Assembly: GCA_949358305.1 (NCBI GenBank)
Contig: OX442314.1
Coordinates: 8,494,001-8,558,000 of the forward strand
Source of the DNA: Strigamia acuminata
Taxonomy: Eukaryota
DNA length: 64,000 nucleotides
Direction: 5' to 3'
Positions 26,155 through 27,238 of the stretch are shown piece after piece. Every line of letters starts with the position of its first letter. Position 1 is the first letter of the stretch. The notes beneath the pieces were generated by a model. That model searched no databases. It was given only the letters and a program-made list of their open reading frames with translations, and was not told the origin of the DNA. Made by a program: the position numbers and the translations under genes.

Positions 26155-27238
26155 TGCGGCGATCCGGGTTTTTACTTATTAAATTATATAAATTCAATAA
26201 GCAATCGTCGGTGAGATGCCGTACAGGACTTCTACTCTGTGGCTAAATGGTTGTCTAGGGGAATGATTTTTACACGGAGAGTAAAAGGAAAAATTAGATT
26301 GTTTTAATCGTTCTAAATACACCGGATATATGCAAAGGGAAAATAATAATAGTGTAATGACGGGGTCGATCTGGCTTCTCTTTGTACTTGGACACTCACA
26401 GTTGACCGTTGGCTCCAAAATGGCGTCGATGGCGTCGTGTGAGCGCGGGATTTTAGCGGAGTAAACTCAACGCTAAAATACGCCTCTAAATATTCTAAAA
26501 TCCTCGTGGAGCACGCTCGACACGAGAATACGTCTTGCACACAGCGGTTCGATTATTACGGAGCAAGCTCGACGTAACAATCGGTCTTTACACAAATCGC
26601 TTTGTGGAGTTAAACTCGACACAAAGCCTTCAAACTAACAGAGTAAACTCAATGTTAGTTTCACACAGAAATGGCTTAAATTACGTGTAGTAATTCAAGC
26701 TAGAAAGTTGCTATTCCGTACAGTGGGTACAGACCAGCGATGAAACTCAATTTGTCCAATATCACAGATCACACTTAGCAGTTTTTGGCATAAGTTTGAC
26801 ACAGTTGTGAACAGTTTGGAGGCAGAATCAAGAGTGCGGGAAGAGTGGGCCAAAACCGTTTGGCTCACTCCTAAATCTGCTCAGAAAAGCTGCGCAGATG
26901 ACGAGTTGCACATAGATCACACACGGCCGCCTTCGGGTCGTGTGCAACAATTGAGCCGGGCACGCACGAGGGGAAGGGATGCTCCGCCCAGGCACACGCC
27001 TAGCAGCATCATCAAAGCAATGCACGCTGCAGCGCGATTGGTTGACGCTGTTGCTGGGCCAAAACTTGCTGCAAAACACAATATTATTTGGGTAATATTG
27101 TGTCTTGTTTTATATTTTATTAATGTATGTTTTATTTCAATTTACATTGAAATAAAACATATAGGCTTGTTGAATATGTTTAAAAGACAATTTGGAAATA
27201 TGGTGCGCACTCAAATAGGAATATTTGAGGTCACCACA
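26155..27238 (-). repeat. 5' LTR of the gypsy element (hairpin array at 26450-26661)
   Basis: Direct repeat of 14400-15483, adjacent to the PBS. Confidence 0.97.

Follow-up and report, generated by a model that had tools for sequence, protein, structure and literature searches.

The window, a stretch of 64,000 nucleotides, carries on its minus strand a Ty3/gypsy retrotransposon with long terminal repeats (LTRs), a primer-binding site (PBS), a polypurine tract (PPT), a target duplication, a gag gene with a CCHC knuckle, and a pol gene in the order protease, reverse transcriptase, RNase H, integrase (PR-RT-RH-IN), the features by which membership of this group is recognized. The LTRs, of 1084 bp each, differ by five mismatches, and the 4-bp target duplication AATT lies at 14396-14399 and 27239-27242.

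14400-27238, minus: Ty3/gypsy element, 12.8 kb
26155-27238, minus: 5' LTR, TG...CA, 1084 bp (LTR comparison)
26135-26152, minus: PBS (sequence reading)
23168-26119, minus: gag open reading frame (ORF), AUG at 26062, with Retrotrans_gag and one CCHC knuckle (Pfam)
18703-23219, minus: pol (PR, RT, RH, IN; Pfam), frame broken near 20315 in the window copy
15484-15497, minus: PPT (sequence reading)
14400-15483, minus: 3' LTR, with an identical five-hairpin array at 14695-14906 (LTR comparison)

The PBS is presumably tRNA-Pro-like. The best RT-RH relatives, 39-46% identical, are mostly proteins of insects, arachnids and fish, which points to an animal host; relatives of the Gag capsid region were sought, and none was found. 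Gag has two Arg tracts, encoded at about 24914-24958 and 24437-24478. At the break in pol near 20315, contigs from other copies differ from the window copy. The element is inserted within a 21-bp tandem repeat (14301-14399 and 27239-27280), and contig joints point to further copies, or empty sites, within that repeat. One joint in run X1 (18372/20540) skips 2167 nt, spanning the integrase and the leader of a further ORF (ORF3, described below); it has no GT..AG ends and is an internally deleted derivative of the element.

A second LTR element lies at 55445-62419 (minus), with LTRs of ~1.16 kb that are 99.8% identical, a similar PBS start, and one ORF of 1471 codons that has no Pfam match and is unrelated to Gag or ORF3. 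Its LTR has two repeated hairpins at 468-536, a donor-like GTRAGT at 725, four GAGA-containing units at 776-880 and AATAAA at 993, a layout that parallels the first LTR with different motifs. Near this element a fragment at 53374-53772 (minus) gives a weak Argonaute N-terminal match (E 3e-4, below cut-off). A copia element at 35947-41092 (plus) has identical 239-bp LTRs and one 1507-codon ORF, which contains a long 12-bp acidic repeat at about 37305-37544. At 30902-30974 (plus) a tRNA-Val was called by ARAGORN; its anticodon, GAC, is unusual in a eukaryote, and the locus is possibly SINE-like or a pseudo-tRNA.

The five-hairpin array

The preliminary description reported five bulged hairpins in the LTR of the gypsy element, and all five are present on the minus strand in both LTRs. 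The array occupies positions 578-789 of the 1084 in the LTR (212 nt) and is repeated letter for letter in the 3' LTR. In the 5' LTR its units, together with two neighbouring hairpins, are:

26673-26748 (LTR 491-566), minus: two additional hairpins with an unbulged core, directly upstream of the array (fold z = -4.91), a different motif
26632-26661, minus: HP1, 9-bp stem, UU bulge, GAG/CUC core, U-A cap pair, 2-nt loop (fold, scan, compensatory changes in copies)
26599-26627, minus: HP2, 8-bp stem, UC bulge, core, U-A cap pair, 3-nt loop (fold, scan, copies)
26550-26583, minus: HP3, 10-bp stem with a variable eleventh pair outside it, UC bulge, core, C-G cap pair (fold, scan, copies)
26500-26529, minus: HP4, 9-bp stem, UC bulge, core, C-G cap pair (fold, scan, copies)
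26450-26479, minus: HP5, 9-bp stem, UU bulge, core, U-A cap pair (fold, scan, two compensatory changes on one contig)

Start-to-start distances are 34, 44, 54 and 50 nt. The lower stems had been put at 8-11 bp; the pairing stands, and the eleventh, outermost pair of HP3 does not, since both of its places vary and the pair is not kept in other copies, so the conserved stems are of 8-10 bp. Folding of the minus strand, proposed earlier as a check, returned five bulged hairpins both as the minimum free energy (MFE) and as the centroid structure (z = -3.88, with none of 200 shuffles as good). The plus strand also folds well (z = -4.48), so fold energy alone cannot choose the strand. In a 1-kb leader context the pair probability of the lower stem is 0.71 in HP4 and 0.97-0.99 in each of the other four hairpins.

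The lower stems of the five units are 42% identical. Over the first 8 positions of each unit, own arms pair at 40 of 40, while swapped arms average 4.75 of 8 with a maximum of 7; pairs were counted on a bulge-anchored register because a MAFFT alignment mis-registers HP2. The base 5' of the bulge is a purine in every unit, the pair below the bulge is G-C in four of the five, and the 10-nt core is a palindrome. A structural scan for the motif (stems of at least 8 bp) found five matches in the LTR sense strand and none in the antisense strand, in 5000 LTR shuffles or in the rest of the window (61.8 kb). Rfam models gave no gathering-level match in the window; in the LTR region there were 10 weak matches at E 2-6, none to a TAR family. 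A reading of the hairpins as pre-miRNAs was rejected, as units of ~30 nt are too short and fall below the pre-miRNA size rule.

Related arrays were looked for with exact-pattern scans, which would miss families with another core or loop. The patterns matched at 8 + 2 loci in viral contigs and at 75 loci in metagenome contigs, and tblastn placed relatives of the element proteins at none of these 85. Eight viral loci were rejected as plain tandem repeats without lower stems. Among the other 77, more than one stem of 5 bp or longer is present at only five; four of these are tandem repeats with near-identical arms of 5-6 bp, and the fifth has a pair of stems, of 9 and 7 bp. The 85 loci include no comparable array and no related element, and serve as a background control. 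No published description of such an array was found in the literature available to the search, outside which lay subscription journals, Repbase reports and supplements.

Variation among copies

Contigs from three runs (two studies, one species label) were aligned to 26400-26720, with settings of 80% likeness and a 1% share. The resulting variation table has 36 rows at 32 places, 31 of which lie inside the array. Variable places number 18 of 59 in the linkers, 10 of 92 in the lower stems, none of 30 in the GAG/CUC cores, none of 21 in the cap pairs and loops, none of five for the first bulge U and three of five for the second bulge base. Linkers and hairpins differ in variability (Fisher P = 1.4e-4). 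Given 13 hairpin changes, the lack of any change in the 35 core and first-bulge-U places has P = 0.03, an invariance not peculiar to the core, as cap and loop likewise show none. Because strongly changed contigs fall into loose ends, the table counts understate hairpin change; the cap pair has no change in the table, yet swaps occur in the loose ends. All of this variation comes from one family under one species label, so that the events are few and not independent, and changes may have spread partly by conversion between units. The flanks of the array were rejected as a variability control on account of edge effects (26419 is variable in one comparison and missing from the other).

Two of the 10 variable stem places form the outer pair of HP3. 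Four keep the pair when changed alone, three creating a sense-strand G-U and one converting G-U to A-U, and four are halves of compensated pairs. Single contigs carry changes of both partners at at least five pairs (among 18 of 87 loose ends): in HP1, the cap pair (U-A to C-G) and one stem pair (A-U to G-C); in HP2, the outer pair (G-C to U-A); and in HP5, on one and the same contig, an A-U to G-C change and a change of the pair under the bulge from G-C to A-U. From matching depths we infer a sixth compensated pair, in HP1. Some copies may carry a mismatch in HP5, because the depth at 26455 exceeds that at its partner 26474. Across the units the fourth upper pair is U-A or C-G, as had been noted earlier.

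The second bulge base is A on one contig, among the same 18 of 87 loose ends, and its U/C swap, which lies within a CpG, may have a mutational origin. The seven indel rows are all in linkers or at stem ends, none at the bulge, and one joint from run X3 skips HP1 and HP2 together. All five single wobbles, two in the window and three in the copies, are G-U on the sense strand. Selection on sense-strand RNA structure, which the preliminary description had put forward, is thus borne out both by pairing across the units and by change among the copies; as far as comparison of sequences can tell, it is shown to act on that structure with the TAR core fixed.

ORF3 and the place of the array in the RNA

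The features bearing on transcription and splicing of the element, listed from its 5' end, are mostly predictions.

27068-27145, minus: AT-rich LTR segment with two AATAAA (LTR 103 and 118), TATAAAA (LTR 125) and two long palindromes (motif scan)
26394-26399, minus: predicted splice-donor-like GTRAGT at LTR 840, 51 nt past HP5 and upstream of the PBS (motif)
26303-26308, minus: candidate distal poly(A) signal ATTAAA (LTR 931), followed by a U-rich tract (inferred)
18647-18736, minus: internal-promoter-like cluster at the end of pol, with CRE (18736), ETS (18703) and E-box (18652) (motif matches)
18503-18581, minus: predicted intron A, 79 nt, GT..AG, 22% GC, in the ORF3 leader (sequence; 1-nt length variant at 18521 in copies)
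18231-18494, minus: ORF3 coding exon 1, 88 codons, acidic (16 D/E of 88; sequence prediction)
17878-18230, minus: intron B, 353 nt, GT..AG, phase 0, 33% GC (predicted; 1-nt length variant at 17882 in copies)
15660-17877, minus: ORF3 exon 2, an orphan, not env-like, with Ser/Arg-rich linkers (sequence)

The motif GTRAGT occurs at only three places in the 12.8-kb sense strand, namely in both LTRs and at the intron A donor. GC content in the ORF3 region is 22-33% in the introns versus 57-59% in the exons. The predicted joint of intron B (17877/18231) was matched exactly on one contig of run X1, among 15 of 66 joints; its depth is 506 versus about 71,000 in the bin, its short side has 27 letters, and the kind of run that X1 represents is not on record. 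Exon 2 has a premature stop at 15868-15870 in the window copy, with 69 open codons beyond it, and contigs of other copies differ there.

Extra ORFs past pol are known in LTR elements (PMC6431247). For ORF3, Pfam, PDB and other sequence searches gave no relatives, and of two single-sequence fold models (pLDDT 42 and 61) the second had no fold match at E 0.001. Its nine Cys are scattered without a cluster, and its Ser/Arg linkers are basic, with no window of five Arg in 10 residues; Gag has two such windows. A loose pattern for nuclear export signals (NES) fits three coding places in ORF3 exon 2 and one in Gag, and these matches are uninformative.

The AT-rich LTR segment is a candidate promoter, proximal poly(A) site or 77-nt intron, to judge by its motifs. 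An unpaired AATAAA/TATAAAA stretch lies between its near-perfect AT-rich palindromes, which measure 16 and 15 bp (27068-27161 and, in the 3' LTR, 15313-15406), and the segment has a donor-like end (LTR 94) and an acceptor-like end (LTR 170). An intron with these ends would delete both poly(A) signals; the frames that follow the acceptor inside the LTR, of 18, 79 and at least 49 codons with stops, are candidate coding sequence only. An antisense open frame of 171 codons without a Pfam match (26744-27259, plus) runs across the 5' half of the LTR. The TATAAAA at LTR 125 is the only canonical TATA in the 5' part of the LTR, and the motif scan found no TATA, Inr or Inr+DPE directly upstream of HP1. 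TAR itself sits beside the cap, at the start of R. With a start set by this TATA, the array would lie about 420-635 nt from the cap, which weakens the TAR-like role in elongation that had first been suggested. Depending on the ends of the RNA, the array would belong to a long R, to U5 or to U3, and the genomic RNA would hold at least one copy each way; the borders of U3, R and U5 require RNA data (PMC3601003).

Possible functions and known systems

In the arginine sandwich of HIV TAR, the bulged U23 caps and forms a triple with A27-U38, A22 is the base, and arginines contact G26 and G28 (PMC6189040). The preliminary description had likened the hairpins to the arginine-binding core of TAR, and against that account the likeness holds at its fixed positions: a purine, U, a free base, then G-C, A-U and G-C. 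In all five units a U-initiated bulge, here of 2 nt, stands above a Watson-Crick pair and below pairs equivalent to those of G26, A27-U38 and G28-C37. The secondary structure that suits an arginine sandwich, with a pyrimidine cap in the bulge, a paired base before it and A-U as the second pair above, fits here, and the invariant set of the array is shown to be the bases that Tat reads in TAR. The 6-nt apical loop of TAR, which Tat and cyclin T1 use, is missing, as had been said, the loops here being of 2-3 nt. No Tat-like protein, with a Cys-rich domain and a compact Arg motif, was found among the element proteins.

From these sequence features we tentatively favour, with slightly less than even confidence, a reading of the array as a multivalent arginine-sandwich platform for a protein of the element, acting post-transcriptionally on full-length RNA. 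Each unit would form a U.A-U triple and hold one arginine, and the five together would dock an Arg-rich protein cooperatively, through avidity. The ligand would be element-coded. Gag and ORF3 had both been named as candidates, and the Arg tracts of Gag now seem somewhat likelier, Gag having two windows of five Arg in 10; ORF3 is weakened, with no such window, Cys cluster, relative or fold. Once bound, the protein would steer the full-length RNA after transcription, by preventing its splicing, promoting its export or packing it into particles. We place the step after transcription because spliceable introns and a donor-like site beside the array demand that genomic RNA be spared. A role in packaging only is weakened, because an exon 1 that includes the array and ends at LTR 840 would put the array into spliced RNA as well. 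The nearest functional precedent for a post-transcriptional role is the RxRE of HTLV-1, which lies in the 3' LTR (PMC7551171).

A bolder proposal, which we consider doubtful, is that the gypsy element has independently evolved a circuit of the complex-retrovirus kind, in which the internal promoter yields spliced ORF3, ORF3 binds the array and full-length RNA is turned on. The switch would be elongation or escape from the adjacent donor, and the case would be one of convergence on Tat/TAR or Rex/RxRE outside the retroviruses. A selected, five-fold array of this core in a gypsy LTR would mean that the arginine sandwich has been found anew by a retrotransposon, and that retrotransposons can carry RNA-protein switches of the complex-retrovirus type. 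As a 212-nt RNA for which nature has supplied a mutational scan, the array also offers a short handle on how intron-bearing LTR retrotransposons with orphan ORFs select their unspliced RNA and on what those ORFs do.

It is unlikely, in our view, that the array acts as a strict Tat/TAR-like switch, with transcription starting shortly before HP1 and ORF3, made from an internal promoter, binding the array and recruiting an elongation kinase. The core is identical to TAR at every base read by Tat, and the first exon of ORF3 encodes an acidic segment, a frequent property of activation domains. HIV-2 TAR has two hairpins with UU and UA bulges at +18 to +85 (PMC1474061), and the CRE, ETS and E-box motifs before ORF3 resemble the internal promoter that drives the trans-activator of foamy viruses (PMC12789967). 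Such a switch is opposed by the missing apical hexaloop, by the lack of TATA, Inr or Inr+DPE close above HP1 (the TATAAAA at LTR 125 would start the array at ~+420), and by an ORF3 with nine scattered Cys and no window of five Arg in 10. An array of five units and 212 nt also extends far past a paused polymerase.

An Arg-rich protein of the host appears an improbable ligand. The array would then mimic the 7SK sandwich, as a sink for HEXIM or to release P-TEFb, or would recruit an adaptor for export or transport. The element proteins have no clear Tat-like module, and the hairpins are closed by short capped loops; in PMC6189040 the TAR bulge and 7SK ASM3 share a secondary structure, and TAR given a stable tetraloop can take a HEXIM-type pseudo-sandwich at its bulge. 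In the same source, however, HEXIM bound only when the pair before the bulge was A-U and no longer when it was G-C, and a HEXIM-type ligand is weakened because four of the five units have G-C there. Nor was the motif found in the window's second LTR element, where a general host signal might be expected.

A DNA-level or neutral origin, as palindromic U3 factor sites or as inverted repeats kept complementary by template switching, is very improbable. In its favour, the two strands fold equally well, near-perfect palindromes abound in the LTR and the core is itself palindromic; against it, template switching would remove a bulge whose length and place are fixed in all five units and free of indels, double-stranded recognition needs no pairing of variable flanks, the spacer varies between 2 and 3, and all five single wobbles are G-U on the sense strand.

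Among animal gypsy elements with long LTRs, the Osvaldo lineage has LTRs of 997-2055 bp and a 4-bp target duplication, to which the ~1.1-kb LTR and the duplication seen here correspond, and a tRNA-Lys PBS, where that of the present element is presumably tRNA-Pro-like; the present element also has an extra spliced orphan ORF; the available text on Osvaldo-type elements describes no such array (PMC3286476). With foamy viruses (tas/bet) the element shares promoter-like motifs where the last replication gene ends, ahead of a spliced accessory ORF (PMC12789967), and differs in that ORF3 is unrelated and the internal promoter consists of motif matches.

Tas of foamy viruses is a DNA binder, and the known Rev/Rex elements are large branched RNAs rather than strings of separate hairpins. 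Like systems of the Rev/Rex type, the element has spliceable introns and unspliced RNA to keep, as indicated by the intron B joint, the length variants and the donor-like site in the LTR. The RxRE of HTLV-1, which bears on polyadenylation, is likewise an LTR RNA near poly(A) signals in an element with a spliced accessory gene and a need for unspliced RNA (PMC7551171); the array has no evident likeness to it in sequence or structure, and the element has no identified Rev/Rex-like protein.

The TAR core has been viewed as a lentiviral copy of a 7SK motif. Stem-loop 1 of 7SK (SL1) has several sandwich motifs in one RNA and a UU bulge followed by G-C and A-U, but stacks four of them in one helix for one peptide (PMC6189040), whereas the array has one per hairpin, with G-C as the third pair and mostly G-C below the bulge. 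HIV-2 TAR shares tandem hairpins with dinucleotide bulges in an LTR; it has two, at the cap end and with 6-nt loops (PMC1474061), where the array has five with short capped loops. HIV-1 TAR, which unlike the array belongs to a vertebrate retrovirus system, has in common with it the paired purine, the bulged U and the G-C, A-U and G-C pairs, with the next pair covarying here. It differs in its hexaloop, where the array has 2-3-nt loops, 2-nt bulges and five units deep in a 1.1-kb LTR, with no Tat-like protein. By its predicted anatomy the array thus resembles an arginine sandwich of the TAR type, and the resemblance is one of anatomy rather than of membership.
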